64,000 bases of DNA from an uncultured Muribaculaceae bacterium (GCA_964576135.1 CAZNTZ010000001.1:5792-69791), one strand, 5' to 3'; positions 3,101 to 63,334 are shown, numbered from the stretch's first letter. Notes: generated by a model from the sequence alone, not told the origin. A program made the numbers and translations.

Positions 3101-3847
3101 AGATGTCACACCGGCTGATGAGAAATTTTGACCGATACCAGGGTTGATAGTAATTGCATTATCACTGTTTGTAACAGTTCCACCAACAGTAATGCCAGCG
3201 CCGCCCGTCAAAGTAATTCCACCATTACCAGAATTTGAAACATTACCCAGGATATTTATTTCGTTTGTTGCAGTAAGAGTTGTCGGCACAGGATCTGGGT
3301 CACCAATCCCGGTTGGAAAATCATATGTAACGCTTAAATTATTTACGCGTATAAAATTACTTGAATTTATAACTGCTTGACCAGATGAAATTGTAATATC
3401 GCCAATTGTTACACCCGTTGCACCGGTAACAGAAAGCATTTCTGCAGAATCAACCAATGATATATTTGATGTTTCAATACTGTTTGTCGAAGCATTCAAA
3501 ACAATATCACCCAGATGCGAAGTTATTGGGTTACGAACATATATATTACCACCTGTTGCAGACAGACTTACCGATCCGCCAAAATTTTCAATTGTACCAA
3601 TAACATCAATATCGCCAGCAGTCGAAGTTAAATTTACTTCGAAAAGACTTTTAAAAGTATTATTGCTGACAGTCAAACCATCTGAAGTATTATTCCAGAT
3701 ATAATCAGTACTGATTCCAGTGTTAGACTGGCTGTAAACAGGCGAAGTTGGCGGTTCTGCAACATCAACATTTACTATCCCAGCAGCGCGCGCAGCGCCA
3801 CATAAAGGCAAAACTGTAACCAAAATTGGTAAAATCTTTTTAAACAT
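185..3847 (-). CDS. autotransporter (type Va) outer-membrane protein with large Gly/Thr/Asn/Ser-rich beta-helical passenger
   Basis: 1220-aa ORF. N-terminal signal peptide MFKKILPILVTVLPLCGAARAAG. Long passenger full of G/T/N/S-rich repeats. C-terminal ~300 aa have alternating hydrophobic beta-strand character and end in ...GGGYRF, the aromatic C-terminal residue typical of OM beta-barrels and autotransporter translocators. Confidence 0.75.
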   Translation of the reverse strand: MFKKILPILVTVLPLCGAARAAGIVNVDVAEPPTSPVYSQSNTGISTDYIWNNTSDGLTVSNNTFKSLFEVNLTSTAGDIDVIGTIENFGGSVSLSATGGNIYVRNPITSHLGDIVLNASTNSIETSNISLVDSAEMLSVTGATGVTIGDITISSGQAVINSSNFIRVNNLSVTYDFPTGIGDPDPVPTTLTATNEINILGNVSNSGNGGITLTGGAGITVGGTVTNSDNAITINPGIGQNFSSAGVTSNSGGRIVFGNGANFGFGAGGLSAAGDLFIGHTDVGTDGDVYFASSATLAASGARNITGGISIETGNSLQIGGPSSAKVASLTAAGLYLDGNFTGYVSGATTLVGGIDIGSATNSNNFYLETGTLTGVSGDIGSHLASYTLNVLNGGVSFTNIYNGSNVGAAIDNVNSDMSITATSITATSDVINVGNSMTFASSGNIVLSNDLLNGTLDGSTATAGAVGAVSNISSSTTLSVRNIVNFGDIIFSGTNSLNIYSILNNGNLFVSSALNTGTINISDIVWNTGNSALGALCTNGTNCDLFMNANQINIGNRLTNESGTGLVSANTGISVYQILNSGGDLVLRSPTINIGSGGIYQTGGTLELHTDNLNITGNGIISAGDTYIYSATGSGLINANIMGDVSGGVKFLGVGSMNITGDYYFNSTSQLLVGLSNSSHNSTIDISNGNISGGTAIVNVSGNLITNNTATAPGGTGLSDGSIGLYLTNIVDSGDAVYLLRATEIQDLQIGTRNLNVMFCNLDGSRCFNYLDAFRADQSLSASGAVPAYLSVKDVDGDGLNDSIYIVFDPRFGGPISIFKIQPIVGKEPTHTANEYASAGALDNLVEGVLIKNGFVNNTPIEAMPSAFLGSDFQQIGNEIYNRMEYYNSDNSKQTLYMARFAKMFEPIEAGAVAMQIDLDERMNYRQFENKLVDEFLLNRTRNLKKVWVDTNVSFFNDSEDINGNRLSVSAGMDWQHSKDTIMGVTARFAQLTSNADMNVDLSYANVMQYGAVRTEAKDTSFSLGAYLIRKLSQESSFYSNLNFYNHSIDVSRSQTFFKDTDGTTTAMSVSGEFGIMHDLLNKYIVGNAYLRGGYNSGFTLNLQDYMNAKQDGFISLTPGYSLAAQKRIYATPWLQLLPKITTGFEYNLLGAKKTIDYKFIDAVDFSKYDTGNGALWFNIGTGIDIISARGGQLGLDYRFQTNGNIQSHNIRLGGGYRF

Positions 3848-6462: not shown

Positions 6463-9400
6463 CTAGCTATCCTTTTTCTGCATAGCAAAGTTTGCGATAT
6501 GCTGTTTCAATTCACGACGATACACGTTATCATTTTTAGCAAGTTCTACCAATTTATCAAAATTAGGGTTTGCTGCTTTGGCTGCACTGAAACGCGATTC
6601 GGTTTTTAAGAAATCTTCTAAATCCACAGATGCTGGACCAGAATCCATAGTAAGTGGATTTTTACCCTGCTCTATTAAATTTGGATTAAACCGATAAAGT
6701 GGCCATGCCCCTGTTCCAACCAATTGATGTTGATGTTCAACACCTTTGTTCAAAGCATAACCATGTGCAATGCACGGACTGTACGCAAGAATTATTGACG
6801 GTCCATTAAATGCTTCTGCTTCGCGGAATGCTTTAATAGCCTGGGCTTGGTTTGAACCCAATGCAATTTGTGCGACATATGCACCAGACATCATTGCAAT
6901 CATTCCTAAATCTTTCTTGGCCATTTCTTTTCCGCCGACAGCAAATTTCATTGATGCACCAAATGGTGTTGCCTTGGACTGTTGGCCACCAGTATTTGAA
7001 TAACCTTCGGTATCAAGTACAAGTATATTCACATTTTGTCCGCTGTGCAAAATATGATCCAAACCACCATATCCAATATCATATGCCCAACCGTCACCAC
7101 CAATAATCCAAACAGATTTATCAACAATTGCATCGGCAAGCGATTCGGCAATTCGTGCGCGTGGGTTTTTAATCTTTGCCAATTTTTCACGAATCATTTT
7201 TTCGTTTTCACGTTGTTTTTCAATATCTTTCTCGGCAAGAATTTTTTCAATAATCTTATCGTCTTCGTCATCAAACACTTCAAATAACAAAGATTTTAAT
7301 GCTGCACCGCGTTGATTCAATGCCATACGCATTCCTAAACCATATTCAGCATTATCTTCGAATAATGAATTTGACCACGCTGGCCCACGACCATTCGCAT
7401 CTTTGGTCCATGGTGTAGTTGGCAGATTTCCACTGTAAATTGACGAACATCCGGTTGCATTTGCAACAACCATACGATCACCAAATAAATGTGCCAACAT
7501 TTTTATATAAGGTGTTTCACCACATCCTGCGCATGCACCTGGGAATTCAAAATAATGTGGCGTTAATTCTAAATGCTTTGGCAAATTCAGGTTTAATTTT
7601 TCACGTGGAAATTCTGGCAAATTTGTAGCTTCGTCAAATGCCTTTTGTTGATTTTCAGTGTCGTTAAGTGGCACCATAGAAAGCGCGTTAACAGGACAAT
7701 TTTTAGCACAAACTTCGCAACCAGTACAATCAGCCGGCGAAATATTTAGTGTGAATTCCAAATCCGAACCAAGTTCTGGCGTTTTATAATCAACAAATTT
7801 TACAGATTCATAATCACCAATTTTGGATTTTTCCAATACGTTTTGGCGAATCGCTGCATGTGGGCACAGCATTGAACATTTTCCACATTGGATACATTTA
7901 TCTAAATCAACTGTCGCAACACTGTCTGATATTGCGCGTTTTTCGTATTTAGATGTTCCAACTGGATACTGACCACCACCAAACATACCGTCAACTTTGA
8001 ATGTGGATACAGGCAAAGAATCTCCGCGCATTCCGGCCATTTCGCCCAATGTTCCTGCGATTTCAACTGGTGTATTCACAGTCATTGCAGGTATAAAGTC
8101 TGGTGCAAAATTTGATGGACTGGATGGTAATTTATATTCTGTTAAAAATTCGCCAGCGCGATCAACCGCGGCCCAGTTAGCAGATACAACTTCGGCACCC
8201 TTCTTTTTATAAGTTTTTTCAATCGCAGCTTTGGCCGAATCAGCGGCCTTAGTCGGATCAATTATTTGTGTAATATTAAAGAAATTCAACAAAATGAATG
8301 TATTAATTCTGTTGCCCAAACCAAGTTCGGTCGCGCCACGATTCGCATCAAGGAAATAAACGTGCGCGTGGTTTCTGATTAATAATTCTTGAACTTCGTG
8401 CGGCAGATTTGCAAAAGCAATTTCAGGTTTCATTCCTGTATTAAACATCACAGAACCACCTGGTTTTAATGCTTTGAAAATATCAAATCTTTGTGCAATT
8501 ACAAAATTTGAAATTCCGATAAAATCAGCTGACTCTACCAGATATTGTGATTTGATTGGTTTTTCACCAAAACGTAAATGTGAAACGGTAAGTCCACCAG
8601 ATTTTTTGGAATCATACACAGCATAGCTTTGTGGATAAAGATCAGAATTTTCACCAACTATCTTAACAATATTTTTTACCGCACCAACTGTTCCATCGGA
8701 ACCAATGCCGTAAAGCAGAGCTGTTTTTACATCTTTGTCTTCAACTGTAAAAAATTCGTCGGTTGGCAAAGAATTGTTTGTTAAATCATCGACAATTCCG
8801 ACAACAAAATTATGTTTTGGTTTACCAGAAATCAGCATTTCATAGATTGCTTTGACATCACGTGGCTTGAATTCTTTTGAACCCAAACCATAACGTCCAC
8901 CAACAATATCTATGTCTAAACGTGCTGCATGTATAGTTGAAACAATATCTTGGTACAGAGGTTCACCAGTAGCCCCAGATTCTTTGGTTCGGTCAAGCAC
9001 AGCGATTCGTTTTACTGTTTTTGGCAAAGCCTCGATAAATGCATCTGTTGGAAATGGACGATATAAATGTACGGCAATCAATCCAGTCTTTGATGGTAAA
9101 TATGGTAATGTTTCGGTAATTGTATCAATCGCACTTCCCATTGCGACCACAACATTTTCAGCCTTTGGGTCACCAATGTATTCGACCAATTTATATTCAC
9201 GACCTGTCAATTTCGAGAATTTTTCCATCGTTTCCGCAACAATTTTTGGAATTTCATTGTAAAGTGGATTTGCTGCTTCGCGGCCTTGGAAATAAACGTC
9301 TGGGTTTTGCGCTGTTCCACGAATTGTTGGATTATTCGGACTCATCCCACGAGCGCGGTTTTCTAGGACTAATTCATCGGTAACTAATTCATGAAGAACT

Positions 9401-9993
9401 TCGTTTGGAATTCTTGTAATTCTGGATTCTTCGTGACTGGTGCGGAATCCATCAAAGAAATGCATGAATGGAACGCGTGCACGTAATGTTGATGCATGTG
9501 CAATAGCGGCCAAGTCATGTGCTGCTTGAACATTATTAGATGACAACATTGCAAATCCAGTCTGGCGGGCAGACATAACGTCACTGTGATCACCAAATAT
9601 AGAAAGAGCGTGTGTAGCAAGAGCGCGCGCGGCGACATGCATAACAAAAGGTGTATGTTCGCCCGCAATTTTATACATATTTGGAATCATAAGTAATAAA
9701 CCTTGCGACGCAGTAAATGTTGTCGCCAAAGATCCCATTTGCAAAGCACCGTGCAATGCGCCTGCTGCTCCACCTTCGGATTCCATTTCGATTACAGATG
9801 GTTGAACACCCCAAATATTCTTTTTATGCTGAAAAGCCCATTCATCAGCCAATTCACCCATTGTGCTTGATGGAGTAATTGGAAAAATCGCCATGAATTC
9901 GCTCAGTCTGTATGCGACATCGGCTGCAGCCCAGTTACCATCTGTTATTAAATGCTCGGGTTTACTTTTACTTTGTTCTTGTTCTTTTTTCAT
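6463..9993 (-). CDS. nifJ: pyruvate:ferredoxin (flavodoxin) oxidoreductase, single-chain homodimeric type
   Basis: 1176 aa. N-terminus ITDGNWAAADVAYRLSEFMAIFPITPSS. Two 4Fe-4S ferredoxin motifs (CIQCGKCSMLCP, CTGCEVCAKNCP). TPP-binding GGDGWAYDIGYGGLDH. Confidence 0.9.
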   Translation of the reverse strand: MKKEQEQSKSKPEHLITDGNWAAADVAYRLSEFMAIFPITPSSTMGELADEWAFQHKKNIWGVQPSVIEMESEGGAAGALHGALQMGSLATTFTASQGLLLMIPNMYKIAGEHTPFVMHVAARALATHALSIFGDHSDVMSARQTGFAMLSSNNVQAAHDLAAIAHASTLRARVPFMHFFDGFRTSHEESRITRIPNEVLHELVTDELVLENRARGMSPNNPTIRGTAQNPDVYFQGREAANPLYNEIPKIVAETMEKFSKLTGREYKLVEYIGDPKAENVVVAMGSAIDTITETLPYLPSKTGLIAVHLYRPFPTDAFIEALPKTVKRIAVLDRTKESGATGEPLYQDIVSTIHAARLDIDIVGGRYGLGSKEFKPRDVKAIYEMLISGKPKHNFVVGIVDDLTNNSLPTDEFFTVEDKDVKTALLYGIGSDGTVGAVKNIVKIVGENSDLYPQSYAVYDSKKSGGLTVSHLRFGEKPIKSQYLVESADFIGISNFVIAQRFDIFKALKPGGSVMFNTGMKPEIAFANLPHEVQELLIRNHAHVYFLDANRGATELGLGNRINTFILLNFFNITQIIDPTKAADSAKAAIEKTYKKKGAEVVSANWAAVDRAGEFLTEYKLPSSPSNFAPDFIPAMTVNTPVEIAGTLGEMAGMRGDSLPVSTFKVDGMFGGGQYPVGTSKYEKRAISDSVATVDLDKCIQCGKCSMLCPHAAIRQNVLEKSKIGDYESVKFVDYKTPELGSDLEFTLNISPADCTGCEVCAKNCPVNALSMVPLNDTENQQKAFDEATNLPEFPREKLNLNLPKHLELTPHYFEFPGACAGCGETPYIKMLAHLFGDRMVVANATGCSSIYSGNLPTTPWTKDANGRGPAWSNSLFEDNAEYGLGMRMALNQRGAALKSLLFEVFDDEDDKIIEKILAEKDIEKQRENEKMIREKLAKIKNPRARIAESLADAIVDKSVWIIGGDGWAYDIGYGGLDHILHSGQNVNILVLDTEGYSNTGGQQSKATPFGASMKFAVGGKEMAKKDLGMIAMMSGAYVAQIALGSNQAQAIKAFREAEAFNGPSIILAYSPCIAHGYALNKGVEHQHQLVGTGAWPLYRFNPNLIEQGKNPLTMDSGPASVDLEDFLKTESRFSAAKAANPNFDKLVELAKNDNVYRRELKQHIANFAMQKKDS

Positions 9994-36870: not shown

Positions 36871-36900
36871 TTGACCAAAGTTGCCTATTTCATTTATAAT
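36871..36900 (+). promoter_or_regulatory. sigma70-type promoter for the motA/motB-like pair
   Basis: TTGACC (36871-36876), 18-nt spacer, TATAAT (36895-36900). RBS AAGAGGA 7 nt before ATG 36920. Confidence 0.5.
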
Positions 36901-36919
36901 ACAAGGGTAAGAGGAATTT

Positions 36920-37735
36920 ATGAACACTCATTTTCACAGAAATCTTAACAGAATGGCCTTGTTTACGGTGTTGATCGTAGCGGGGCTGGTAATGTGGCAC
37001 GTAAATATTTTACAAATGGCACTGAATAACATATGGTTAAACGGCGCTATTTTAGGAACAACTATTTTTGGAATTGGTTTGTGTTTTGCAAATATTTTTC
37101 AATTGGTTCCAGAATATTCATGGATGCGTCGATTTTTTTCGGACAAATCAAAGTCCATAGATTTACCGCCACGCATTTTACGCCCTGTGGCAATAATGTT
37201 GAACACAGCAAAATTTCAAAAGAAAAAATATATTTCATCACAGACATTAAATAATTTTCTTGAAATTATTATTGGTCGTTTTGAAGATCAACGCGAGTCT
37301 ATCAGATATATTACAAATGTTTTGATTTTTATGGGACTGCTTGGCACGTTTTGGGGACTGATACATACTGTTGGTGGTTTTGCAGATTTAGTTCATGGTT
37401 TAGATTTTGCAGATGAAAATATTATGACAACGGTTCAAAAGGGACTTGCCGTGCCACTTTCTGGAATGGCTGTTGCATTTACAAGTTCATTATTTGGTTT
37501 GGCTGGTTCATTGATTGTTGGATTTTTGGGTTTGCAAGTACAACTTGCCCAAAATGCAATGTTCCGTGAACTTGAAGAGCAATTATCCGATCGTGCAAAA
37601 TTATTTGGATATTTAGAAATCGGTGCACGCGGCGAAGAAACCGCACTACCTTATGTCAATGCAGCCGCAAAAGAATTGACCAAAGCAATAGAAAAGCTTG
37701 ATAAAACCGTAAGCAAAATGACGGCAAAAAGTTAA
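36920..37735 (+). CDS. MotA/TolQ/ExbB-family proton-channel subunit (stator A-like)
   Basis: 271 aa. 4 predicted TM helices with a ~70-aa cytoplasmic loop between TM2 and TM3. TM3 MGLLGTFWGLIHTVGGF and TM4 VPLSGMAVAFTSSLFGLAGSLIVGFLGL match the MotA/ExbB/TolQ signature. Confidence 0.7.
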   Translation: MNTHFHRNLNRMALFTVLIVAGLVMWHVNILQMALNNIWLNGAILGTTIFGIGLCFANIFQLVPEYSWMRRFFSDKSKSIDLPPRILRPVAIMLNTAKFQKKKYISSQTLNNFLEIIIGRFEDQRESIRYITNVLIFMGLLGTFWGLIHTVGGFADLVHGLDFADENIMTTVQKGLAVPLSGMAVAFTSSLFGLAGSLIVGFLGLQVQLAQNAMFRELEEQLSDRAKLFGYLEIGARGEETALPYVNAAAKELTKAIEKLDKTVSKMTAKS

Positions 37736-37755
37736 ATCTTTTTGGGAGAGAGCAA

Positions 37756-38946
37756 ATGATAAAATTTCGTGAACGCACAAATACATGGCCTGGATTCGTA
37801 GATTTGTTTTCAAATCTGGTCATTGTTTTGATTTTTTTATTGATTGTTTTTGTGTTTCTTTGGACAACTACAAGTATATTTAATTCCAAAACTGGCGCCA
37901 AAAAAATGGCTGAATTAACAAGAATAAATGCAGAACAAAGCGAACAAATTGTTCAAATGACTGCGGATGAACAAGAAGCTAAGCGTCTCTTGATTCTTGC
38001 CCATGCAGAATTGGAACATCTTGAATCAACCAAGGCAAGTCTTGAAGATGAAGTCAATAATCTTGATTCTTCGGTAAAAAATAAAGATGCAAAAATCGAA
38101 GATCTTGTTCTTTCTTATGAAGACAAAGTTAAACAAATTCAATTATCAAGCGAGAATATGCGGGCCATGATTCAATCTTTGAATGCCCAATTGAGTTCTT
38201 TGAATGATCAACTTAATGCTACTCAGTCTCAAAGTATTGCGGCACAGTCACAAACCGAGGCGGAAAAAGCGGAACTTGCCAATCAAAGAAATAATTTAGA
38301 ACAACAACTTGTTACGTTGAACCAACAACTTGCAGATATGAATGCCGCATTGCAAGCAGCAGAAGTAAAGTCTCAGCAACAAGAAGTTAATTATGTAGAA
38401 ATGTCAACCCGTCTGAATCGTGCATTAGCTGACAAAGCAGCCGAAGCAGCAATGTACGCAAACGAAGCAGCAAAATATGCCGAAATGTCAAAATATCAGT
38501 CAGAATTTTTCAAAGCAATTAAATTAGCTTTTGCAAATGATCCTAATATCGACACCAGCAGTGACAGATTCCTAATTCCAAGTGATATATTATTTGCATC
38601 TGGATCTTTTGATTTATCACCCGAAGGAAAAAAACAACTTAATGTAATTGCAAACGTGATAAAGAATATGGAAAACGTTATTCCACAAAATGTTGCTTGG
38701 ATAATACGTGTTGATGGACATACAGATACAAAACCGGTTGTTCCAGGAAATCGTGCATATAAAAATAACACTGAATTGTCACTGTTGCGCGCACGTGCTG
38801 TGGCACGCGAACTGGGTGAAAAAGGTGTAAATCGTAAACGATTGGTTCCTAGCGGCTTTGGCGAATTACATCCAGCAATCCAAGGTGAAAGCCCAACTGC
38901 ATTGCAAAAGAATCGCAGAATAGAACTGCGTTTGACAAATCCGTAA
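37756..38946 (+). CDS. MotB/OmpA-family stator B-like subunit with ~250-aa Q-rich coiled-coil linker
   Basis: N-terminal TM with conserved Asp (WPGFVDLFSNLVIVLIFLLIVFVF, compare MotB YADLMTLL). Long heptad-rich linker. C-terminal OmpA/MotB peptidoglycan-binding domain (...VDGHTDTKPV...NTELSLLRARAVARELGEKG...NRRIELRL). Confidence 0.7.
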   Translation: MIKFRERTNTWPGFVDLFSNLVIVLIFLLIVFVFLWTTTSIFNSKTGAKKMAELTRINAEQSEQIVQMTADEQEAKRLLILAHAELEHLESTKASLEDEVNNLDSSVKNKDAKIEDLVLSYEDKVKQIQLSSENMRAMIQSLNAQLSSLNDQLNATQSQSIAAQSQTEAEKAELANQRNNLEQQLVTLNQQLADMNAALQAAEVKSQQQEVNYVEMSTRLNRALADKAAEAAMYANEAAKYAEMSKYQSEFFKAIKLAFANDPNIDTSSDRFLIPSDILFASGSFDLSPEGKKQLNVIANVIKNMENVIPQNVAWIIRVDGHTDTKPVVPGNRAYKNNTELSLLRARAVARELGEKGVNRKRLVPSGFGELHPAIQGESPTALQKNRRIELRLTNP

Positions 38947-38980
38947 AAAATCAATCCGCCAAATGGCGGATTTTTAATTT
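38945..38980. terminator. rho-independent terminator after motB-like
   Basis: aaaaaaTCAATCCGCCaaatGGCGGAtttttaatttt. Confidence 0.7.
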
Positions 38981-38981
38981 T

Positions 38982-39194
38982 CTATTCATCAATATCTATT
39001 ACTTTATCGCGTGATTTTTCACCCCTGACTATTTTAATTTTTGATTTGGCGATATTAAAATATTCTGACAATAATTTTATTACTGCTTCGTTTGCATGAC
39101 CATCGGTTGGTGCCACAGTTGTATAAACTTTGGGCAAATCAACTTTGGCATTTTTGGCCTTTGTAATAACACGTATATTTATTTTCCTGACCAT
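38982..39194 (-). CDS. DUF167/YggU-family small protein
   Basis: 70 aa. ...APTDGHANEAVIKLLSEYFNIAKSKIKIVRGEKSRDKVIDI resembles YggU (UPF0235). Confidence 0.55.
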   Translation of the reverse strand: MVRKINIRVITKAKNAKVDLPKVYTTVAPTDGHANEAVIKLLSEYFNIAKSKIKIVRGEKSRDKVIDIDE

Positions 39195-39547
39195 TTTTCA
39201 AATTCTTGTGATTTATCGCCAGACATTATATGTAAATGAAAATGCATGACAGATTGGTTTGCAAATGTTCCGCACCCTGCATTTGACAAAATATTAAAAT
39301 CGTTTTGGATTCCAAGTATGTCCGCAGTTTTATAAAATGCCTGCCAAAACCCTAATTGTTCTGCTGGGGCGGCATTTTTAATAAAGTCGTATATATTTAC
39401 GTATTCACCCTTTGGAATAACAAGCGCATGTTTTGATGCAGCGGGATTTACATCATTAAAAGACATTGCATATTCGTTTTCAAAAATCTTGTTCGTCTGA
39501 ATTTCCCCGCGTACAATTTTCGCAAATATATTGTTTTTGTCATACAT
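39179..39547 (-). CDS. HIT-family (histidine triad) nucleotide-binding protein
   Basis: 122 aa. Histidine triad SVMHFHLHIMSG. Confidence 0.8.
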   Translation of the reverse strand: MYDKNNIFAKIVRGEIQTNKIFENEYAMSFNDVNPAASKHALVIPKGEYVNIYDFIKNAAPAEQLGFWQAFYKTADILGIQNDFNILSNAGCGTFANQSVMHFHLHIMSGDKSQEFEKWSGK

Positions 39548-41567: not shown

Positions 41568-42671
41568 TTATTTTGATTTGCCAAGTCTTTCACGTGCAAG
41601 TTTTGCAACTTTTAACAAATCATTTTTATTATCGCATTTTGTACAATTAGTTTTAATACAACCAATGCATTTTTTTGGAACATAAGTTAATATGACCTTA
41701 TAACTTTCTTTGTTTTCTTTACTATATTTTTCTATTTTTTTTACACCACGTGCAAATCTGTGGGCAAATATATTAAATATTTCTGAATCATCACCAAATG
41801 CTTTTTGTGCTTCTGTAACTATGGATCCATAGTAAAATATTTTATCTTTGACACGTTTTAATCTGCGCATATGCTTTTCAGAATGTCTTACCAGTTTTGT
41901 CATCGCAGAATCTGGTCTGCGACGATATCCGTAAAAACCTTCTGGCATACCGATCATAGCAATTTTGTATTGCTGCATAGATGAAAAAATATATCTTGTT
42001 ATAAAATCTGCATCTTCAAAATAAAACATATTATTGTTAAATCTCAGCATATTATCTGAAATTACTGAATTTCGATACATTACCGAACAAGCGCTTATAC
42101 GTAAATCAATAAAATTCATAACCTGGGCGTAATTTAGATTTTTTATGTATAATTTTTGTGCCAATATATTTGCTTGATCTGTAAATATTGGCGAAACACC
42201 ATCTTTATCTATTGGTAAAATATGTCCAGCAGAAAAAGCAACTGTGGGATGTTCATCTAGACAATATTTAAAACTTTCCAAATAGTGGGTATTTATACAA
42301 TCACTTTTATTAGGTTTAAATCCGATAATATCATCACTGTCAACAAACATCATATATCTGCCAGTTGCAAGATTCATACCAACATTCCGCGATGCAGAAA
42401 CACCAAGATTAAATTTATTATTTATAACTTTAACATTTTTTGCAGAGCGTCTATTTTGCAGATATTTTTCCAATTTGTTTGCTGTTAAATCCGAAGAAGC
42501 GTCATTAACTATTATTATTTCTGATTTTTCTATACCCTTTTGGGCACGAACAGAATCCAAACAATCAATTACATATTTATCAGTATTATAAGCAGGAATA
42601 ATAATAGATACTTCAGGCTGCCCATTTTTTTTATCAGTCTTGCTAACTTTTTCTGTTTTTACCGATTTCAT
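41568..42671 (-). CDS. family-2 glycosyltransferase with C-terminal Cys4 cluster
   Basis: N-terminal GT-A motif VSIIIPAYNTDKYVIDCLDSVRAQ...IIIVNDASSD and DxD region (FVDSDD). C-terminal ...KKCIGCIKTNCTKCDNK. Confidence 0.7.
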   Translation of the reverse strand: MKSVKTEKVSKTDKKNGQPEVSIIIPAYNTDKYVIDCLDSVRAQKGIEKSEIIIVNDASSDLTANKLEKYLQNRRSAKNVKVINNKFNLGVSASRNVGMNLATGRYMMFVDSDDIIGFKPNKSDCINTHYLESFKYCLDEHPTVAFSAGHILPIDKDGVSPIFTDQANILAQKLYIKNLNYAQVMNFIDLRISACSVMYRNSVISDNMLRFNNNMFYFEDADFITRYIFSSMQQYKIAMIGMPEGFYGYRRRPDSAMTKLVRHSEKHMRRLKRVKDKIFYYGSIVTEAQKAFGDDSEIFNIFAHRFARGVKKIEKYSKENKESYKVILTYVPKKCIGCIKTNCTKCDNKNDLLKVAKLARERLGKSK

Positions 42672-42829
42672 TAAAAAATCTCTTTCCTATTTATTTTAAT
42701 CATTAAAACGACTTGGCAATTATCACCGAAATAAAAATACCATAAATTTGGTCATTTTTACAACGGATCGGCATTATGCGACAAATTTTATTATATGTCA
42801 ACATTTACATATAAACCACTAGCCCCTAT

Positions 42830-42858
42830 TTTTGTATATACATTGTGTATATACAAAA
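42830..42858. repeat. perfect 12-bp inverted repeat (TTTTGTATATAC-attgt-GTATATACAAAA) upstream of tRNA-Gln
   Basis: Read directly from the sequence. In the divergent intergenic region between the GT2 gene start (42671) and tRNA-Gln (42946). Confidence 0.6.
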
Positions 42859-42945
42859 GTTTGTTTAATTTCCAGGCCTTATTGATAAAACTGATGTGAT
42901 TTTTGTTTGCAAAGCTTGCTTTTGCAGCTTATAATGGCGCCGCAT

Positions 42946-43019
42946 TGGGGCATAATTTAACGGTAGAATACCGGACTCTGACTCCGTTCATGTTGGTTCG
43001 AATCCAGCTGCCCCAACCA
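42946..43019 (+). tRNA. tRNA-Gln (anticodon CUG)
   Basis: TGGGGCATAATTTAACGGTAGAATACCGGACTCTGACTCCGTTCATGTTGGTTCGAATCCAGCTGCCCCAACCA. U1:A72 acceptor pair characteristic of tRNA-Gln. Loop CTCTGAC. Close overall match to E. coli tRNA-Gln. Confidence 0.85.
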
Positions 43020-43022
43020 ATT
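43002..43022 (+). repeat. direct repeat copy 1 (last 18 nt of tRNA-Gln plus 3 nt): ATCCAGCTGCCCCAACCAATT
   Basis: Identical 21-mer recurs at 43181-43201. Confidence 0.9.
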
Positions 43023-43055
43023 ATTTGAACCCTTGTGGTTCGAATAATTGGTTTT
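43017..43055 (+). terminator. 15-bp stem-loop terminator overlapping the tRNA-Gln 3' end
   Basis: CCAATTATTTGAACC-cttgt-GGTTCGAATAATTGG followed by ttttgag (one G:U pair). Confidence 0.65.
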
Positions 43056-43180
43056 GAGTAAACTGATATGAGAACCTTGGTTCGCTTACGAGTCAGCGAG
43101 CAGAGCCAAAGCGAAAGTGAGCGTAGTGGAGCGTCAGCGAACGGGAACGAGTTGAAGCAGAGCGCAAAGCGCGAGCACCC

Positions 43181-43201
43181 ATCCAGCTGCCCCAACCAAT
43201 T
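43181..43201 (+). repeat. direct repeat copy 2 of the tRNA-Gln 3' end (att-like)
   Basis: ATCCAGCTGCCCCAACCAATT, exact match to 43002-43022. Preceded by a ~100-bp GC/purine-rich tract atypical of this AT-rich genome. Confidence 0.9.
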
Positions 43202-43507
43202 TTTATTTGATAATTTTTCTAATTTCATAGCAAAATAACTAATAATGAACTGGAAAATAATATTTAAATCTTTGTTTATATGGCTGTGGATGATTCCAAT
43301 TGCTTTTATAAACGGAACACGAGCGCAGAAAGAATTATTATAAAAATAATACGCAAAAATTTTTCATAATTTAAAATTTTCATCGAAATACTCTATAATA
43401 ATTTATGTTAAATTTACCTCAAAATATTATATTAATAAACACGCAAAAGAAACTTTTCAATTTATATTACACCGTTATACAGATGTTTATTTGAAGTTAA
43501 GTTAAAC

Positions 43508-43536
43508 TTGACAAATAGATTTTTTTGGGTATCATT
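43508..43536 (+). promoter_or_regulatory. putative sigma70 promoter (TTGACA-16/17-TATCAT) for the downstream hypothetical gene
   Basis: TTGACA 43508-43513 and TATCAT 43530-43535, about 30 nt upstream of ATG 43566. Confidence 0.4.
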
Positions 43537-43565
43537 CTATAAATCAATGAACAAATGGGGTGACA

Positions 43566-44336
43566 ATGTTCAAAAAACTGAAATTAAAATTAGCAGCTTT
43601 AAAATTACAGATAGCCACTAAAAAGGCCGAAAAAGAAGCACGTCGTGCCAAAGCACGCGCAAAGAAATCTACCAAAACCGATTCGAAAAATAAATCGGCA
43701 GTCGGTCGCGTATTAAGTTACATTATTAGAATACCTTCTAAAACTTGGAATTGGATTTCTACACGCAATACAATCGGTTTAATAAATTTGGCTTTGCTTG
43801 CTGGAATTATTGTTTTATTTTCAATTTTAATTATCGATTTATACGATGCCAACCAAATCAAAAATGGTAAAAATGGTTCTGCATTATTCCGTGGGGCATC
43901 TGCAGATGAAACATCAATGACTACAGAACAACGTCGCGTTATTGTTCGCACATCCGTTTCTGTTGGTAAACAACGTACAATTAATACTGTAAGTTTGCCT
44001 CTGGAAAAACCGGCAACTGTTTCAACATATGTTTATGAGAAAGTTGTTGTTCCAACCCGTAATTTATCTGGTGACATTATTATTGATGGCGAAGATATAG
44101 CAAGCCTGCGTCTTATGCCTGGGGACAATATTTCTGGAAATTTGATTGTACAAAATGTTCGTCGTTTCAAATTACCACACGATATTAAGATAAACGGAAA
44201 TTTAATTTTACGTAATGCTGGGATTGTTAAATTCTGTGGACCGTTTACGATTACCGGTAATATTTACGTAAGTCGTAATTCATCTTTTGGTCCAATCCCC
44301 CGCGAAGCACACCTTGGTGGTCAGGTACTGTTCTAA
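43566..44336 (+). CDS. hypothetical bitopic membrane protein: Lys-rich cytoplasmic N-terminus, one TM, beta-rich C-terminal domain with GN(L/I)-type repeats
   Basis: MFKKLKLKLAALKLQIATKKAEKEARRAKARAKK..., TM IGLINLALLAGIIVLFSILIIDLY. C-terminal NISGNLIVQNV...KINGNLILRNAGIVKFCGPFTITGNIYVS. ORF track starts at GTG 43560. Confidence 0.5.
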   Translation: MFKKLKLKLAALKLQIATKKAEKEARRAKARAKKSTKTDSKNKSAVGRVLSYIIRIPSKTWNWISTRNTIGLINLALLAGIIVLFSILIIDLYDANQIKNGKNGSALFRGASADETSMTTEQRRVIVRTSVSVGKQRTINTVSLPLEKPATVSTYVYEKVVVPTRNLSGDIIIDGEDIASLRLMPGDNISGNLIVQNVRRFKLPHDIKINGNLILRNAGIVKFCGPFTITGNIYVSRNSSFGPIPREAHLGGQVLF

Positions 44337-58568: not shown

Positions 58569-61130
58569 TTACATTGCTATGTCTTCGCATTTTTCAACTG
58601 GATCAGATGATGTACAGTTGGTTTTGCGACTGTCCCACAATCCAAATAGTCCGCGACTGCCACTGGTCTTGCAATCTTGTTTTACAGTCGATTTACATAA
58701 ATGACAGTTTCTGGCGTCACGGTTAAATATCGCCCAAGTTTCAGTTGTTACACCACCGGCAGTTACTTTGAATTTATAACCTTCTTGTTTAAGTCCACCC
58801 ATTTGGCTTTGTCCATGACCACCGGTCATTAATTGATCAGTTGTCAGTCCTGCACCAACGTCATATGAAATCGCGTACGGCGGTGTCAGCGGGGTTGATA
58901 ATGGATCTGGCGCATCACCAGATGTAGTGGTAGTTGCGCCACTTGATTCTGCCATTTTCTGACACATGTATTGTGCTAAATCTGCTGACGCACCCTTGGT
59001 TGCATCTGAAATTGCCTTATTAACCTTTTTATTATAATTTTCATTTGCCTGACGTAATGCAGCAATTGCAATTTGCATTTTAACACTGTTCAAAAGGTTT
59101 GGAAAACGTGCACTTGTCTTTTCGGATTTACCAGTGACTTGTTCCAAACTGCGTCCACTGATGCAATATTGAATTTTTGGATCTTGTTCAATCATTTGGG
59201 TTACACGATTGATTGTTCCAGCAATATTGTTTAACTCTTCTTCAACAGATGTGATTATACCGGCGGCATTTGCCACAGATGTATTTTCTCTGCGAACCTT
59301 TGCAATATATTCTTCAACCCCAAGTTGTCCAGGCGCAAGAATCGTAGTGGTACCATCTTCGGCAACGTCTTTGGTTTTTCCAGAGGCATCACCCATTTTG
59401 ATTGAACCAAAAGAAATCATTCCAGTAACGCGATAAATTGTTCCATCTTTCTGGGACTTTATTGAACTTGTACCAATTGTATCATCGCTGGCAAATTTAT
59501 TACAATCTGTCGTTGAACCACAAACTTCTTCCATTTTTGTGCTGACCAGGTTCTGGCAATTTTCAAGTGCAGAATTATCAATATTCAAATACAGACCCAT
59601 CAACATTGAATCCAAATCATCCATAGCAAACTGTGGGTTATTTTGTTTGCAGACAACCAATTTATCAATTGGGCAAATATCATGAATATATTTATAATCC
59701 ATACCGACACATTTTTCGAAATTTGAACCGCAACGATCATCAGATGTAAAACAATCTTTGACTTCTTGGGTGCAACGATCGACACGCATAGATTTTAATT
59801 TATCTGTGACATAACCCCAAATCAAAGGCTCCATACGTTCGCAAGCGTCAATTTGAACTTTACAAAAGCTGCGCGCCATTTCTGGACGTGATAAACACGA
59901 ATCCATTGTTGCTACACCTTTGCCTTCGATATCATCTTTACATGCAGTTTGTATACATGCAGAAATATCAGTCAAACATGATTGACGACGTTTTGATTCA
60001 TTATTAAGTTCAGCAATTTTCAAATCTGGTGCAACTTCTCGGATAAAATCTGACCAAACATTATCACGCACAGCAACGCATTGATCTAAAACTTTTTCAC
60101 AAATATTACGTTTTGAATCTAAAGATTCCATTGTTGAATCTGCTATTTCAAACTTTGCAACTGTCTGAATATTTGAACCAGCAGTGCTGACAGTTTTAGA
60201 TTGCATATTTTCATATGCAACTTCGCCAACACATTTTGACCAATCAGATCCGCAAACATCGGTACCATTCATACATTTTCTGAATTCCAACATACATTGT
60301 CCGCGATCAAATTTATTTGATGATTCAAACGAAGTAAGTCTTGCATCGCGAATACTTTTTTGTGCATTAGCAAAAACCGTATTCACAGATTCCTGCATTT
60401 TTGCAATAGTATTTCCAAATGCACGACAATCGTTTCTGACCTGTGTCGTGTAAAGCTGGGTTAACAGATTTGCATCAGAATTGCATGAATCAGGCATACG
60501 CGAAATACATAAATCACGCGCCCCAACTTGCAAAGCATCACCTGTTTTAGTGCTGAGATTTTGTTCATTTTCAGTAAAAATATCTTCAGATTCATCGGGA
60601 GAAGATGTATTCCACATAGAAAGCAAATTTGCTTTTTTATTTTTTGCTTCGGTATCTTCCAGAGAAATAACGTTTCCCGAAGAATCATAACTGCGCTCTC
60701 CACCGAAAACAATATCTGCCTTGGCACCGGCTTGGATTTTTTCGACTTCTACTGTGCTTAATGTTTGTGCATTGGCTAACTTTGAATTCATTTCAGAAAT
60801 CTGTTTTTTATAACCAACACCTTCGTCAGAACATGCGCATGTACCACCATCCAAAGTTACTGGACCGTCTGGAATATTCAATACAGTACTGTCGCCTGCG
60901 CAAAATTGATCCATACAACCAAAGTAAGAATTATAACAATCTTGGGAATAAATATTCGATGCTTCTACCTTGGCACGAACACCGGTCGCATTTCCAACAA
61001 CACTAACTGTCTTTGCACCACCAGTTCTGGCCGCAATGGTTGCCGCAGAAACTGATAATGGCACAATACAAGACACAGACAATGCCAATATCCAAATATT
61101 TAATTTTGCTTTTATCATTAATCTCTCCAC
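58569..61130 (-). CDS. giant secreted cysteine-rich protein, paralog A (853 aa), unknown family
   Basis: Signal peptide MERLMIKAKLNIWILALSVSCIVPLSVSA. More than 40 Cys. Shares conserved blocks with the upstream paralog (CMDQFC, CACSD, GAKA(D/N)(I/L)VFG, VLDQC(V/M)AVRD, RNCH(L/I)C, C-terminal CED(I/V)xM). Confidence 0.6.
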   Translation of the reverse strand: MERLMIKAKLNIWILALSVSCIVPLSVSAATIAARTGGAKTVSVVGNATGVRAKVEASNIYSQDCYNSYFGCMDQFCAGDSTVLNIPDGPVTLDGGTCACSDEGVGYKKQISEMNSKLANAQTLSTVEVEKIQAGAKADIVFGGERSYDSSGNVISLEDTEAKNKKANLLSMWNTSSPDESEDIFTENEQNLSTKTGDALQVGARDLCISRMPDSCNSDANLLTQLYTTQVRNDCRAFGNTIAKMQESVNTVFANAQKSIRDARLTSFESSNKFDRGQCMLEFRKCMNGTDVCGSDWSKCVGEVAYENMQSKTVSTAGSNIQTVAKFEIADSTMESLDSKRNICEKVLDQCVAVRDNVWSDFIREVAPDLKIAELNNESKRRQSCLTDISACIQTACKDDIEGKGVATMDSCLSRPEMARSFCKVQIDACERMEPLIWGYVTDKLKSMRVDRCTQEVKDCFTSDDRCGSNFEKCVGMDYKYIHDICPIDKLVVCKQNNPQFAMDDLDSMLMGLYLNIDNSALENCQNLVSTKMEEVCGSTTDCNKFASDDTIGTSSIKSQKDGTIYRVTGMISFGSIKMGDASGKTKDVAEDGTTTILAPGQLGVEEYIAKVRRENTSVANAAGIITSVEEELNNIAGTINRVTQMIEQDPKIQYCISGRSLEQVTGKSEKTSARFPNLLNSVKMQIAIAALRQANENYNKKVNKAISDATKGASADLAQYMCQKMAESSGATTTTSGDAPDPLSTPLTPPYAISYDVGAGLTTDQLMTGGHGQSQMGGLKQEGYKFKVTAGGVTTETWAIFNRDARNCHLCKSTVKQDCKTSGSRGLFGLWDSRKTNCTSSDPVEKCEDIAM

Positions 61131-61150
61131 AAAATAATTTTATCTGTGTT

Positions 61151-63334
61151 TTACATATTCACATCTTCGCAAGATTCTATTTCTTGACAGAAAGTTTGCT
61201 TACCACCTGTGAATAATCCACCAATTGCGCCTGCAACACCGCCGATCAGACTGCCCCAACCTGGCAAAGCAGCTGTACCCATCGCTGCACCACCGGCTGC
61301 CATTTTTGCGGCAGATGCTGCTTTTGATTCGCCACCTTGTTCACAAACTTTTTGAACACGACAAATATGACAATTACGAAGCGATGGTTCAAATGAAACA
61401 GATGTTACCCAAACGCCCGGATTGTTTCCACCGCGATCACCTTTGTTTGAATCTTTTTCTGACGCAAATAAATCATCACAAGCAGCACGTGCTGATTCTA
61501 CATCTTCTTGTTTTGCAAGCTCTGCTTTGCGCGACACATATGCACGTTCGGCACGTTTTTCAGCATTAAATTTTGCCAATGTTTTCGCAGTATTAAATAT
61601 ACTTACACCCAATTTATTTCTGCCAGATGGCTTATTTGTATCACTGCATGCAGCAACCGTTTGGTCTTTTTCAAACTGAACAAAAAATTCATCAACTGCG
61701 GCATCTGCATTTGTGCGCCAATCAACCTTGTCTGTTGATTTTTTCATTGCAGCAATTTGACCGTCTGCCGGCAAACATGCCATATCTGTACCACAAACAC
61801 GACCCAAAGCTTCTGCAAAATGATTAACACAACCAACCATCATTTGGTAATTCATCTGGAGCAATGCTGCAGAAACAATAACATCAAATTGATTTTGTCC
61901 ACGGCAAGATGGAAACATATTTTGTGGGCACATTGCAATAATGTCTTTAGAGCTTTTACCAACACATTCAGCTTTGTCGTAATTTACACCACATTTATCT
62001 TGTAAACATTTATCCACATCGTTCTGGCAGAATTGAATTCTTAAAAACCCAAGTCTGTCACCAACAGAATTTTTAATTCCTGGAACCATTGATTCACACT
62101 CTTCAATCACAGGACAAATTCCTGACGCAATATTAACATTATCAAGACATTGTGAATTTGTGTCCGTTGAACATGAATTTTCTAAACAATCTTGTATACG
62201 TGCAAAGCAAGTTCCACGACGATTCTGATCTGCGAATTTTGCAGCATTTTCTAAAACCAGTTTCGATTCGTCTTGCCAATCTTTCTTAACATAGTCGCGC
62301 ACAGCCATACATTGATCCAAAACATTATCACACGCATTGCCGCGTCTTGCCAATAAATCAGTATCAAGGCAATTTTCAAAATTCGCGCCACAACCACCTT
62401 TATCTGCAACACAAGATTTATAAGCGATCAAACATTCACCACGATTATATTTATTAGTAGTATCAAGCATCGCAAGACGTGCTTCACGCACAGCTTTTTC
62501 TGCGGCTGTCTTATTATCGCTTGCTATTTTTTTCTGATCATCAAGGAATGTGCTGAAAGTTTTGCAATCGCTTGTAACCTCACGACTATAAAGTAATTCT
62601 TCCATATTAGCGTCAGATCCACATGCTGTCAGACGATCTTTACATGATTCCGCAGCCATATTATAAAGGTTTGTACCAATATACATATCCGAATCGAGAC
62701 TTTCTCCATTATCAGAACTGCCGCCGCCAACCCAATCAGCCAAACTCATTCCGGTGACTTTGGATTGTGCCTTGGCTTTATCACTTGTTCCAAAAACTAA
62801 ATTTGCTTTGGCCCCAAGTTTTTCACGTTCAACACCTTCGGTATAAAGTTTATCAGCAGATGATTGAATATCGCTGATTTCTTTAATTCTTGATTTTGAT
62901 TGAATAATATTGTCAGAACAAGCGCAACGGGCACCTTCGGAATCATCAAGCAAACAAAATTGATCCATACAACTGCGATAAGCATCGCGGCAACCCCCAC
63001 CCGTTGTTGTACCAGATTGTGTTGTTTGTGTATTTATTGTTGTTCCTGTCGCAGTGGACACAGATGCAATTACCCCAGGCTGTGCAGTTGTCGTTGTTAC
63101 AGAACCTTCGACAGTACCATCAGGCAAAGTACATTTTCCCGCAACCACAACTGAATTAGAATTTTTGCATGCAGGCGCAGATGGAACACCGCCAGCGGCA
63201 CGGGTTGATGCCTGCGAAATTCGAAGCCCTACACGACTTGAATCAATTGCGTCAGCGCGACTTGCCGCATTTGCAGAAGATATATAAAACAAACTGACCA
63301 GCGTAAATAACGCCGCAAAGAATTTCTTTGTCAT
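61151..63334 (-). CDS. giant secreted cysteine-rich protein, paralog B (727 aa), unknown family
   Basis: Signal peptide MTKKFFAALFTLVSLFYISSANA. Thr-rich linker. More than 40 Cys. C-terminal Gly/Ala-rich hydrophobic stretch then CQEIESCEDVNM. 20-nt gap to paralog A, so probably co-transcribed. Confidence 0.6.
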   Translation of the reverse strand: MTKKFFAALFTLVSLFYISSANAASRADAIDSSRVGLRISQASTRAAGGVPSAPACKNSNSVVVAGKCTLPDGTVEGSVTTTTAQPGVIASVSTATGTTINTQTTQSGTTTGGGCRDAYRSCMDQFCLLDDSEGARCACSDNIIQSKSRIKEISDIQSSADKLYTEGVEREKLGAKANLVFGTSDKAKAQSKVTGMSLADWVGGGSSDNGESLDSDMYIGTNLYNMAAESCKDRLTACGSDANMEELLYSREVTSDCKTFSTFLDDQKKIASDNKTAAEKAVREARLAMLDTTNKYNRGECLIAYKSCVADKGGCGANFENCLDTDLLARRGNACDNVLDQCMAVRDYVKKDWQDESKLVLENAAKFADQNRRGTCFARIQDCLENSCSTDTNSQCLDNVNIASGICPVIEECESMVPGIKNSVGDRLGFLRIQFCQNDVDKCLQDKCGVNYDKAECVGKSSKDIIAMCPQNMFPSCRGQNQFDVIVSAALLQMNYQMMVGCVNHFAEALGRVCGTDMACLPADGQIAAMKKSTDKVDWRTNADAAVDEFFVQFEKDQTVAACSDTNKPSGRNKLGVSIFNTAKTLAKFNAEKRAERAYVSRKAELAKQEDVESARAACDDLFASEKDSNKGDRGGNNPGVWVTSVSFEPSLRNCHICRVQKVCEQGGESKAASAAKMAAGGAAMGTAALPGWGSLIGGVAGAIGGLFTGGKQTFCQEIESCEDVNM

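Follow-up and report, generated by a model that had tools for sequence, protein, structure and literature searches.

What kind of machine is formed by two MotA/MotB-like proteins whose genes stand away from any flagellar gene? The question is raised by a 64-kb stretch of DNA from an uncultured bacterium recorded as Muribaculaceae (GCA_964576135.1 CAZNTZ010000001.1:5792-69791; hereafter the window, meaning the whole stretch, with positions counted from its first letter), in which two adjacent genes, A and B, encode such proteins. Ion-driven motors of the 5:2 class are a small set, comprising flagellar stators and the Ton, Tol, gliding, type 9 secretion and Zorya systems, and each of them powers a different envelope process. 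We find it reasonably probable that the pair encodes a non-flagellar, peptidoglycan (PG)-anchored, ion-driven motor unit of this class and belongs to an alphaproteobacterial family. That the family is of the non-flagellar 5:2 type is very probable; that its role lies in cell-envelope, pole or division mechanics, and not in swimming or phage defence, is a more tentative proposal. The features on which these statements depend are as follows.

36920-37735, plus strand: gene A, an open reading frame (ORF) of 271 aa
37277-37309, plus strand: cytoplasmic motif RFEDQRESIRY, A residues 120-130, just before the third transmembrane helix (TM3); from conservation among homologues
37334-37360, plus strand: TM3 channel signature GLLGTFWGL, A residues 139-147; invariant alignment columns
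37756-38946, plus strand: gene B, an ORF of 396 aa
37789-37878, plus strand: transmembrane (TM) helix of B with the WPGFVD motif, residues 12-41, from AlphaFold2 (AF2) and hydropathy; Asp16 codon at 37801-37803
37894-38529, plus strand: periplasmic helical stalk of B, residues 47-258; from AF2 helices, periodicity and composition
38590-38916, plus strand: OmpA/MotB-type PG-binding domain of B; Pfam residues 279-387, E = 5e-16

Hydropathy reveals four hydrophobic segments in A (residues 13-31, 42-60, 134-152 and 185-203). The N-terminus is positive, the 63-130 loop basic and the 156-178 loop acidic, a charge distribution that fits a protein with four TM segments and both termini in the cytoplasm. 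The ORF, the hydropathy and the conservation agree with a preliminary description of the locus, which had given A as a 271-residue, 4-TM protein carrying GLLGTFWGL. The AF2 model of A is confident (predicted local distance difference test score, pLDDT, 89.8; predicted template-modelling score, pTM, 0.78), with helices at 3-25, 27-73, 88-99, 107-160, 168-225 and 244-270. The cytoplasmic loop between TM2 and TM3 is ~68 residues long (63-130) and would contain one discrete helix (88-99) in addition to extensions of TM2 and TM3. After TM4 there are 66 residues (206-271; window 37535-37735), in which one short helix, 244-270, is kept.

The TM3 signature is invariant in 22 close homologues of A and nearly invariant in 51 diverse ones. 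Across the diverse set, W68, R120, Y130, G139, L140, G142, T143, F144, G146, L147, F187, S190, G193, L194 and G201 are invariant, and the invariant residues map to the two channel helices and to the cytoplasmic motif preceding TM3. Within that motif R125 is nearly invariant, and D123 is also invariant in the close clade. RFEDQRESIRY may serve as an output or partner surface.

When the A model is used as a Foldseek query, ZorA (8vvn_D) ranks first (E = 1.8e-3; template-modelling scores 0.45/0.52), followed by ExbB and TolQ. The top of the fold searches consists exclusively of A subunits of 5:2 motors, which supports, as a class, the earlier suggestion of a non-flagellar proton-driven machine. 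A also passes Pfam MotA_ExbB (PF01618), with 24.4 bits against a gathering cut-off of 22.9 over residues 101-190. As modelled, A is a 4-TM subunit with the fold of the MotA/ExbB/TolQ/ZorA superfamily. In hhalign comparisons its TM3 signature FLGLLGTFWGLIHTV aligns with TolQ 136-153 and ExbB 137-161 (E ~2e-4), bringing the invariant Thr143 opposite TolQ T145 and ExbB T148, and A shares with both the TM signature G-L-x-G-T-x-W-G with its channel Thr. TolQ and ExbB have three hydrophobic segments, whereas A has four. E. coli TolQ and ExbB miss A by tblastn, and no TolA, TolB, Pal or TonB homologue lies near the pair.

By hidden Markov model (HMM), the nearest family to A is ZorA, as it is by Foldseek. 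The PADLOC ZorA models match A at up to 1.3e-12 (ZorA3), but over the TM3-TM4 region only, and the NCBIfam models score far lower than their cut-offs (ZorA_4, 6e-5 and 22.1 bits against 500; ZorA_2, 17.5 bits against 100). Apart from these weak ZorA matches, no NCBIfam model for MotA, PomA, TolQ or ExbB matches A at E<=1. An hhalign comparison of A with E. coli MotA returns a probability of 3.4% in the wrong region. Flagellar stators (the FIT clade) are defined by an expanded TM2-TM3 cytoplasmic domain with a torque interface of four or more helices (PMC12505986). The hydrophobic segments of E. coli MotA imply a cytoplasmic loop of well over 100 residues, compared with ~68 in A.

Subunit B has a single TM segment (17-35 by hydropathy, 12-41 as an AF2 helix) with the motif W-P-G-F-V-D16-L-F-S, and the stretch FVDLFSNL holds Asp16. 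W11, P12, F14, V15 and D16 are invariant in 25 close-homologue sequences, and WPGFVD, including the Asp, was detected in 72 of 74 complete B ORFs. Similar motifs occur in E. coli MotB (W-K-I-A-Y-A-D32-F-M-T), TolR (V-P-L-L-D23-V-L-L) and ExbD (T-P-F-I-D25-V-M-L), so the motif of B is a generic B-subunit motif. Hydropathy and the Pfam match (5e-16) confirm B as a 396-residue protein with one TM segment carrying this Asp and a C-terminal OmpA domain, as had been noted before.

The closest relatives of the C-terminal domain, by sequence and by fold, are those of MotB, PomB and MotS. Its best matches among PDB sequences are the MotB and PomB periplasmic domains (1e-8), and hhalign aligns it with E. 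coli MotB 159-266 at E = 3.5e-9. The Foldseek template-modelling score TMt is 0.70-0.74 to MotB-like DVU_2228 (3khn), PomB and MotS over ~155-160 aligned columns and 0.55-0.59 to Salmonella MotB; overall, the alignments to MotB, PomB and MotS span 150-176 columns. N338, L341 and R345 are invariant in the 25 close-homologue sequences, and their spacing, N-x-x-L-x-x-x-R, equals that of the PG-binding residues N152/L155/R159 of ZorB (PMC11946911). B also matches the ZorB3 and ZorB1 models at 2e-19 and 4e-18. The best NCBIfam match is NF006543 (PRK09039.1-2; 229 bits, E = 1.2e-67), below the 305-bit equivalog cut-off, so that B is a divergent sequence by this measure. PF13677, the MotB_plug model, does not match B at E<=1. 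The periplasmic part of B shows no similarity to TolR, with which an hhalign-type comparison failed to align it, so that the TolR/ExbD type of periplasmic domain is not recognized in B. We infer that B is the dimeric axle and anchor of the unit.

The pair resembles MotAB, PomAB and MotPS in its 4-TM A subunit, in the Trp preceding the TM Asp of B and in its adjacent A-B operon. Flagellar stators differ in having a torque interface and a plug, neither of which is found in the window pair, and in place of their flexible Gly/Pro-rich linker B has a rigid, Pro/Gly-poor coiled coil. The TM helix and the OmpA domain are ~240 residues apart. AF2 models the coiled-coil element as a helix from 47 to 160, a low-confidence break at 161-168 and a second helix from 169 to 258, after which the alpha/beta domain begins. 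The 212 helical residues include 34 Ala, 24 Glu, 24 Leu and 23 Gln, one Gly and no Pro. In helix 47-160, hydrophobic residues recur with a period of 3.5 residues (p about 0.002 against shuffled sequences). The preliminary description of a long Gln/Ala/Glu-rich coiled coil thus holds for the helicity, the composition and the first helix; helix 169-258 is without clean heptad periodicity.

The length of B is quantised in heptads across homologues. Measured from the TM motif to the end, it equals 1 mod 7 in 110 of 120 close homologues (P0121-P0240), with values of 358, 365, 372, 379, 386 (window B), 393, 400 and 414. Distant alphaproteobacterial members (loci L011-L080) fall into another class, 37 of 61 lengths being 5 mod 7. 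Raw counts of this kind are inflated by shared ancestry, but tests on unique lengths (8 of 16 at 1 mod 7 in the close homologues, p=8e-4 before correction for class choice; 13 of 32 at 5 mod 7 in the distant members, p=2.5e-4) agree in direction with those on single segments. Between E74 and Y121, all 34 deviations from the modal length are multiples of 7, from +7 to +56. No change in length occurs in the 38 residues next to the TM helix, in two internal blocks or in the PG-binding domain of 118 residues. Near the predicted break the length varies by 4, 8, 11, 18 or 29 residues; in window B the departures from the modal form are +7, +11 and +10, four heptads (+28) in total.

Large insertions in one helix are not balanced by changes in the other helix, which favours a coiled coil that is continuous and keeps its register over a matched hairpin. 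An antiparallel hairpin was considered and is less likely, since one helix takes insertions of up to 56 residues. If fully extended at ~0.148 nm per residue, the stalk would measure ~31 nm in the window protein, ~27 nm in the modal form of its clade and ~23 nm in the Bradyrhizobium-type protein. B had been called unusually long. This is true in comparison with MotB, TolR and ExbD but not within its own family, where the span from the TM motif to the end is 323-611 aa (median 365; 74 complete ORFs). A long B is thus one of the features that define the family and no peculiarity of the window genome. Architecture and motif are the same in the B protein of Bradyrhizobium (342 aa).

The family is large. 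A collection clustered at 90% contains 3527 homologues of A and 4816 of B, an exhaustive HMMER search yields 1811 clusters at 50% identity, and at least 577 stretches in species-representative genomes encode a relative of A. The reference-genome scan needed an alignment of A; a scan with the single sequence recovered no relatives. Nearly all named carriers among the reference genomes are Alphaproteobacteria. The closest named relatives of A belong to Ca. Enterousia (50-63% identity), and those at 33-42% to Bradyrhizobium, Azospirillum, Nitrospirillum, Caenispirillum, Roseospira, Kordiimonas, Thalassobaculum and Acetobacteraceae. With an Acetobacteraceae A as the homologue query, the top 120 matches were all Acidiphilium-like at >=70% identity. 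B follows A in about 77 of 80 reference-genome loci, and the neighbours are housekeeping genes; this synteny check had been called for in the preliminary description. We conclude that this is a large, vertically inherited alphaproteobacterial family. Clustering of the pair with genuine alphaproteobacterial MotAB carrying long linkers, named earlier as an outcome that would speak for a flagellar origin, was not found.

Public records often label the family 'flagellar motor protein MotA/MotB', and B as PRK09039 'peptidoglycan-binding protein'. Some metagenome-assembled genome (MAG) records that bear the pair are labelled Patescibacteria, Sediminibacterium ginsengisoli, Lachnospiraceae, Bacteroidia or Muribaculaceae (L026, L031; P0028, P0034, P0153); these are probably mis-binned or contaminated contigs. 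An exact-sequence look-up of the window A returned no record.

Most relatives of A are 330-600 aa long, with a coiled-coil-like C-terminal extension of 100-300 residues after TM4 (P0242-P0389; L016:7998-9119). A few close relatives have tails of intermediate length (P0056, P0063 and P0066; 311-318 aa). The window clade has lost most of the extension. In distant Alphaproteobacteria (L012-L080, in the ~2-3.5 kb before A and the 3 kb after it) the gene order is efp, a suhB-like inositol monophosphatase gene, an optional OmpA-protein gene, A, B and, on the opposite strand, an MsbA-like ABC transporter gene. Present in about 25 of 70 distant loci, where it immediately precedes A in the same orientation, the optional gene encodes a secreted OmpA-domain protein (for example L076:7046-7894, L057:6510-7952, L025:6869-7918, L026:936-1964 and ~20 more, including loci of Azospirillum, Roseospira and Thalassobaculum). 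Its signal peptide (with a lipobox-like LAVTAC in Azospirillum), VxVDLSV motif, Pro/Ala-rich spacer and C-terminal OmpA domain give it what reads as a Pal-like architecture. The gene is absent from the window and from Bradyrhizobium (L041), and its product may be a facultative third component.

Two groups of carriers are reported to lack flagella. The first is the order Rs-D84, which includes Enterousia and has genomes of 0.67-1.6 Mbp, mostly under 1 Mbp, for which it is stated that 'Flagellar machinery was missing' (PMC12306168). These reduced-genome gut bacteria are thought to depend on partner cells; the respiratory chain is absent, and an F0F1 ATPase and an H+-pyrophosphatase occur in some genomes only (PMC12306168). 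Enterousia loci carry the same synteny as the window pair. The window itself carries housekeeping genes and a ferredoxin-oxidoreductase-like ORF and is about 90% coding, a content in keeping with a gut alphaproteobacterium of fermentative metabolism and reduced genome such as those described for Rs-D84.

The second is Komagataeibacter hansenii, which has no flagellar or pilus genes and in which adjacent genes annotated 'motA' (348 aa, 4 TM) and 'motB' (321 aa, one TM, OmpA-like C-terminus) have been studied (PMC6570709, PMC6315621). Translation of the published cloning primers gives a MotA start of (V)TRPTTY and a MotB end of EFRLTDR-stop. Acetobacteraceae members of the present family start with MTRPTIY or MTRPTVF and end in IELRLTDR-stop; the termini match at 6 of 7 residues, stop position included. 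On these termini and the architecture, the K. hansenii genes are very probably orthologues of this family. They resemble the window pair in their adjacency, in the 4-TM A, in the one-TM B with its C-terminal OmpA-like domain and in belonging to a non-flagellated alphaproteobacterium; the K. hansenii A has a C-terminal extension that the window A lacks, and its B is shorter than the window B. Overexpression of motA/motB in K. hansenii produced elongated, filamentous or chained cells, looser cellulose and an approximately threefold increase in colony spreading on soft agar, and green fluorescent protein fusions were polar, or bipolar in long cells (PMC6570709, PMC6315621). The authors, Jacek et al. 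(2018, 2019), describe the partner of MotA/MotB as unknown (PMC6315621, PMC6570709).

Taken as a motor of the 5:2 class, the pair can be given the following mechanism. By analogy with the fold class, five A subunits would surround two B TM helices in the inner membrane. Ions, probably protons, would pass between Asp16 of B and the TM3/TM4 surface of A (Thr143 and the Gly/Ser-rich TM4), and their passage would rotate the A ring relative to the B dimer, as in MotAB, ExbBD, TolQR and ZorAB. The two B chains would form a long, rigid, probably parallel dimeric coiled coil in the periplasm, at the end of which the MotB-like PG-binding domain would fix B to the wall. The rotating ring would act on a partner through its small cytoplasmic domain (the RFEDxRExxRY motif and C-terminal helix 244-270), and in most relatives the coiled-coil-like tail of A, 100-300 residues long, would also take part in the output. 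An envelope, pole or division role is proposed because of the Komagataeibacter phenotypes, the anchoring to PG, the Tol-like architecture and the retention of the family in minimal genomes. A bolder and, on present evidence, rather unlikely extension of this proposal would make the pair a trans-envelope force generator of Tol-Pal-like type, self-contained and specific to Alphaproteobacteria, in which B would combine a TolR-like ion-coupling TM helix, a TolA-like rod and a Pal/MotB-like head. The rod would be heptad-tuned to the dimensions of the envelope, the A ring would work at the poles or division sites, and the system would survive genome reduction to under 1 Mbp in lineages that have lost flagella and respiration.

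Several observations weigh against a PG-anchored ion-driven motor. The A5B2 stoichiometry, the ion flow and the rotation rest on analogy, the predicted models being monomers, and the margin by which A passes its Pfam family is narrow. A profile search of the PDB finds no solved homologue of A, the best match being a weak one to ZorA (E=0.15); this search used a tail-free alignment of A, the more diverse alignment being dominated by the coiled-coil tails of longer homologues. The AF2 model of B is of moderate quality (pLDDT 74.8, pTM 0.41). Because of its low-confidence break at 161-168 and a helix 169-258 without clean heptad periodicity, the model is also compatible with a hinged or folded-back stalk. 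For E. coli, PG is quoted as lying ~9 nm from the inner membrane (PMC11946911); a fully extended stalk of 23-31 nm is about three times that, and simple perpendicular anchoring does not explain its length. In the related loci, no gene for an output partner is conserved near the pair. Best hits and synteny would place the window organism in or near Rs-D84, and since the lineage is without respiratory chains (PMC12306168) the source of its ion gradient is uncertain. Finally, the K. hansenii functional data come from overexpression in a distant genus (PMC6570709, PMC6315621), and the orthology is drawn from 7-residue termini and architecture, not from full sequences.

The alternative that survives best, though we consider it improbable, is that B is a structural tether or periplasmic ruler to PG and A a membrane chaperone or gated channel with no rotary output. 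A rigid stalk of heptad-quantised length, constant towards either end, would suit such a function, as would the conserved PG-binding residues, the failure to find an output partner and the near absence of a cytoplasmic tail from A in the window clade. The difficulty lies in the residues of the proposed ion path, B Asp16 and A Thr143 and Gly139/142/146, which are strictly conserved throughout the family, as are the cytoplasmic W68, R120 and Y130 of A. This conservation is hard to explain without an ion-coupled activity and a cytoplasmic interaction. In addition, the characterised members of the fold class are all energy transducers.

Less weight still is given to a motor for flagellum-independent surface movement (gliding or spreading) similar to AglRQS or GldLM. 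Other non-flagellar 5:2 motors do power gliding (PMC12505986), and overexpression of the probable orthologues increased spreading ~threefold in K. hansenii, which is neither flagellated nor piliated (PMC6570709, PMC6315621), but this spreading could be a side effect of filamentation or of altered cellulose. Glt-, Gld- or adhesin-like genes are not conserved beside the pair. Unlike AglS and GldM, B has its own PG-binding domain as a wall anchor, and lineages not known to glide carry the family universally, while reduced-genome gut bacteria also keep it (PMC12306168).

A Zorya-like envelope sensor, which would detect a perturbation of the wall and, in defence or stress responses, signal via A to cytoplasmic effectors whose genes lie elsewhere, has a slim chance of being correct. 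The likeness to ZorAB is real: ZorAB is a 5:2 motor whose B subunit, ZorB, carries a TM Asp and binds PG through a domain with this residue spacing (PMC11946911; PDB 8qyd, 8vvn), A is matched best by ZorA in both HMM and Foldseek searches, ZorB3 and ZorB1 models match B, and the C-terminal extension of most A relatives recalls the cytoplasmic helical tail of ZorA, or a short version of it. However, the matches to A are confined to TM3-TM4 and their scores are far under the family cut-offs. ZorA has 3 TM helices and a 70-nm tail of about 500 residues, whereas the window A has 4 TM helices and 66 residues past the last of them; in ZorB the PG-binding domain is joined to the TM helix without a linker (PMC11946911), whereas B has ~240 residues in between. 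Zorya systems lie in defence islands with ZorC/D/E. The window pair stands in a core-genome context, no ZorC/D/E/F/G-like gene is conserved beside it in the neighbourhoods of the related loci examined, and a PADLOC scan found no other defence family. The synteny with housekeeping genes across Alphaproteobacteria, the GC content equal to that of the surroundings and the retention in genomes under 1 Mbp (PMC12306168) are likewise unlike a defence island. The pair is not a member of Zorya. Zorya had already been judged unlikely in the preliminary description, and the missing ZorC/D/E, the core context and the score of 22 against 500 bits sustain that judgement; the argument that the long tail is on the wrong subunit applies to the window clade only, as most relatives do have a tail on A.

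The weakest reading, an atypical flagellar stator in which A5B2 docks on a rotor and the long stalk suits a wide periplasm or a scaffold, draws on the MotA-like 4-TM topology of A, the TM Asp of B, a PG-binding domain most like those of MotB, PomB and MotS and the many public records annotated 'flagellar motor protein MotA', but it is very improbable and at the level of the family is rejected and largely refuted, because no MotA/PomA model matches A (hhalign to E. coli MotA, ~3%), the ~68-residue loop with one discrete helix leaves the torque interface of four or more helices absent (PMC12505986), the plug is absent and the flexible linker is replaced by a spacer that has no Pro and a single Gly, and flagella are reported to be lacking in the related lineages Rs-D84 and Komagataeibacter (PMC12306168, PMC6570709). 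The earlier suggestion of such a stator is thus not supported. Flagellar genes are also missing around the pair. A tblastn screen with E. coli FliE/F/G/H/I/L/M/N/P/Q, MotA, TolQ/R/A/B, CpoB and ExbB/D found none of these in the 64-kb window or in 82 loci, and thus no rotor gene (FliG, FliM or FliF); the sole match in the screen was the OmpA domain of B itself, reached by the MotB and Pal queries.

The PG-anchored motor reading makes the family apparently another widespread branch of the 5:2 class, with at least 577 reference-genome matches and about 1800 clusters at 50% identity, and with a distinctive architecture in which a heptad-quantised periplasmic rod is borne on the anchoring subunit. 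That gut Alphaproteobacteria keep it in genomes mostly under 1 Mbp, with neither flagella nor a respiratory chain reported, suggests that it serves a basic function in the envelope and raises the question of which ion gradient drives it. The labels 'flagellar motor protein MotA/MotB' can mislead by implying motility where an organism has no flagella. Databases already contain the family, which has been touched experimentally in Komagataeibacter, and the window pair is an ordinary member of it. A literature search found no structural or mechanistic description of the family, and no paper that recognizes a non-flagellar motor family spanning the Alphaproteobacteria or reports heptad quantisation in B; the papers retrieved on PRK09039 were irrelevant, and those on stator-like and non-flagellar systems were general reviews. 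The growth-zone Rgs/Tol-Pal proteins of S. meliloti were considered as counterparts and set aside, none being MotA-like or OmpA-like (PMC7327166), and the paper on the R. sphaeroides CenKR regulon does not mention such genes. Genetically tractable carriers exist in Bradyrhizobium, Azospirillum and Komagataeibacter.

A and B lie on the plus strand, separated by an intergenic gap of 20 nt, and have the signals expected of a two-gene operon:

36871-36900, plus strand: sigma-70-like promoter, TTGACC-18 nt-TATAAT, 11 of 12 consensus matches
36909-36915, plus strand: Shine-Dalgarno-like AAGAGGA, 4 nt 5' of the A start codon; read from the sequence
37742-37748, plus strand: Shine-Dalgarno-like GGGAGAG preceding the ATG of B; read from the sequence
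38953-38972, both strands: terminator-like hairpin AATCCGCC-AAAT-GGCGGATT, a perfect stem of 8 pairs, 5 of them G-C, with T-runs on either strand

The promoter-like site is the top-scoring site of the 2.9-kb region scanned. The promoter and terminator that had been ascribed to the pair are thus present as a consensus site and an 8-bp hairpin; like the Shine-Dalgarno calls, they are consensus matches and no proof of function. With these putative promoter, ribosome-binding and terminator signals, A and B appear to form a two-gene operon. B and DUF167 converge on the hairpin, which has the look of a bidirectional terminator serving both genes.

Pfam confirms ribosomal protein S6, RecO, DSBA-like, DUF167 and HIT genes in the flanks. 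The genes rpsR and rplI are putative, assigned from 80-85% and 67-77% identity to the equivalent positions in related loci, and GroES/EL genes are also among the neighbours in the window. Flanks of ribosomal-protein and HIT/DUF167 genes, with no flagellar, Tol-Pal or TonB neighbours, had been reported before and are borne out by Pfam and tblastn. In the window clade the pair and rpsF-rpsR-rplI are divergently oriented, and recO and dsbA lie past the ribosomal-protein genes, an arrangement common to four related loci (L001, L002, L006 and L009). Horizontal acquisition of the pair was considered and is unlikely, as its GC content is that of the rest of the window and the synteny is conserved.

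Some smaller observations concern the remainder of the window. The DUF167 (YggU-like, 70 aa) and HIT (122 aa) genes, at 38982-39547 on the minus strand, overlap by 16 nt (39179-39194), and this overlap suggests that their translation is coupled. Three very large ORFs of 727-1220 aa have signal-peptide-like N-termini and are listed with 185-3847 and 58569-63334, both on the minus strand. The N-terminus of a 1176-aa ORF (6463-9993, minus strand), judged by eye, resembles pyruvate:ferredoxin oxidoreductase. The lowest-GC stretch of the window (42001-44000, 32%) lies just downstream of a family-2 glycosyltransferase gene (41568-42671, minus strand). A tRNA-Gln gene at 42946-43019 is overlapped by a 99-aa ORF (42929-43228) that is probably spurious.

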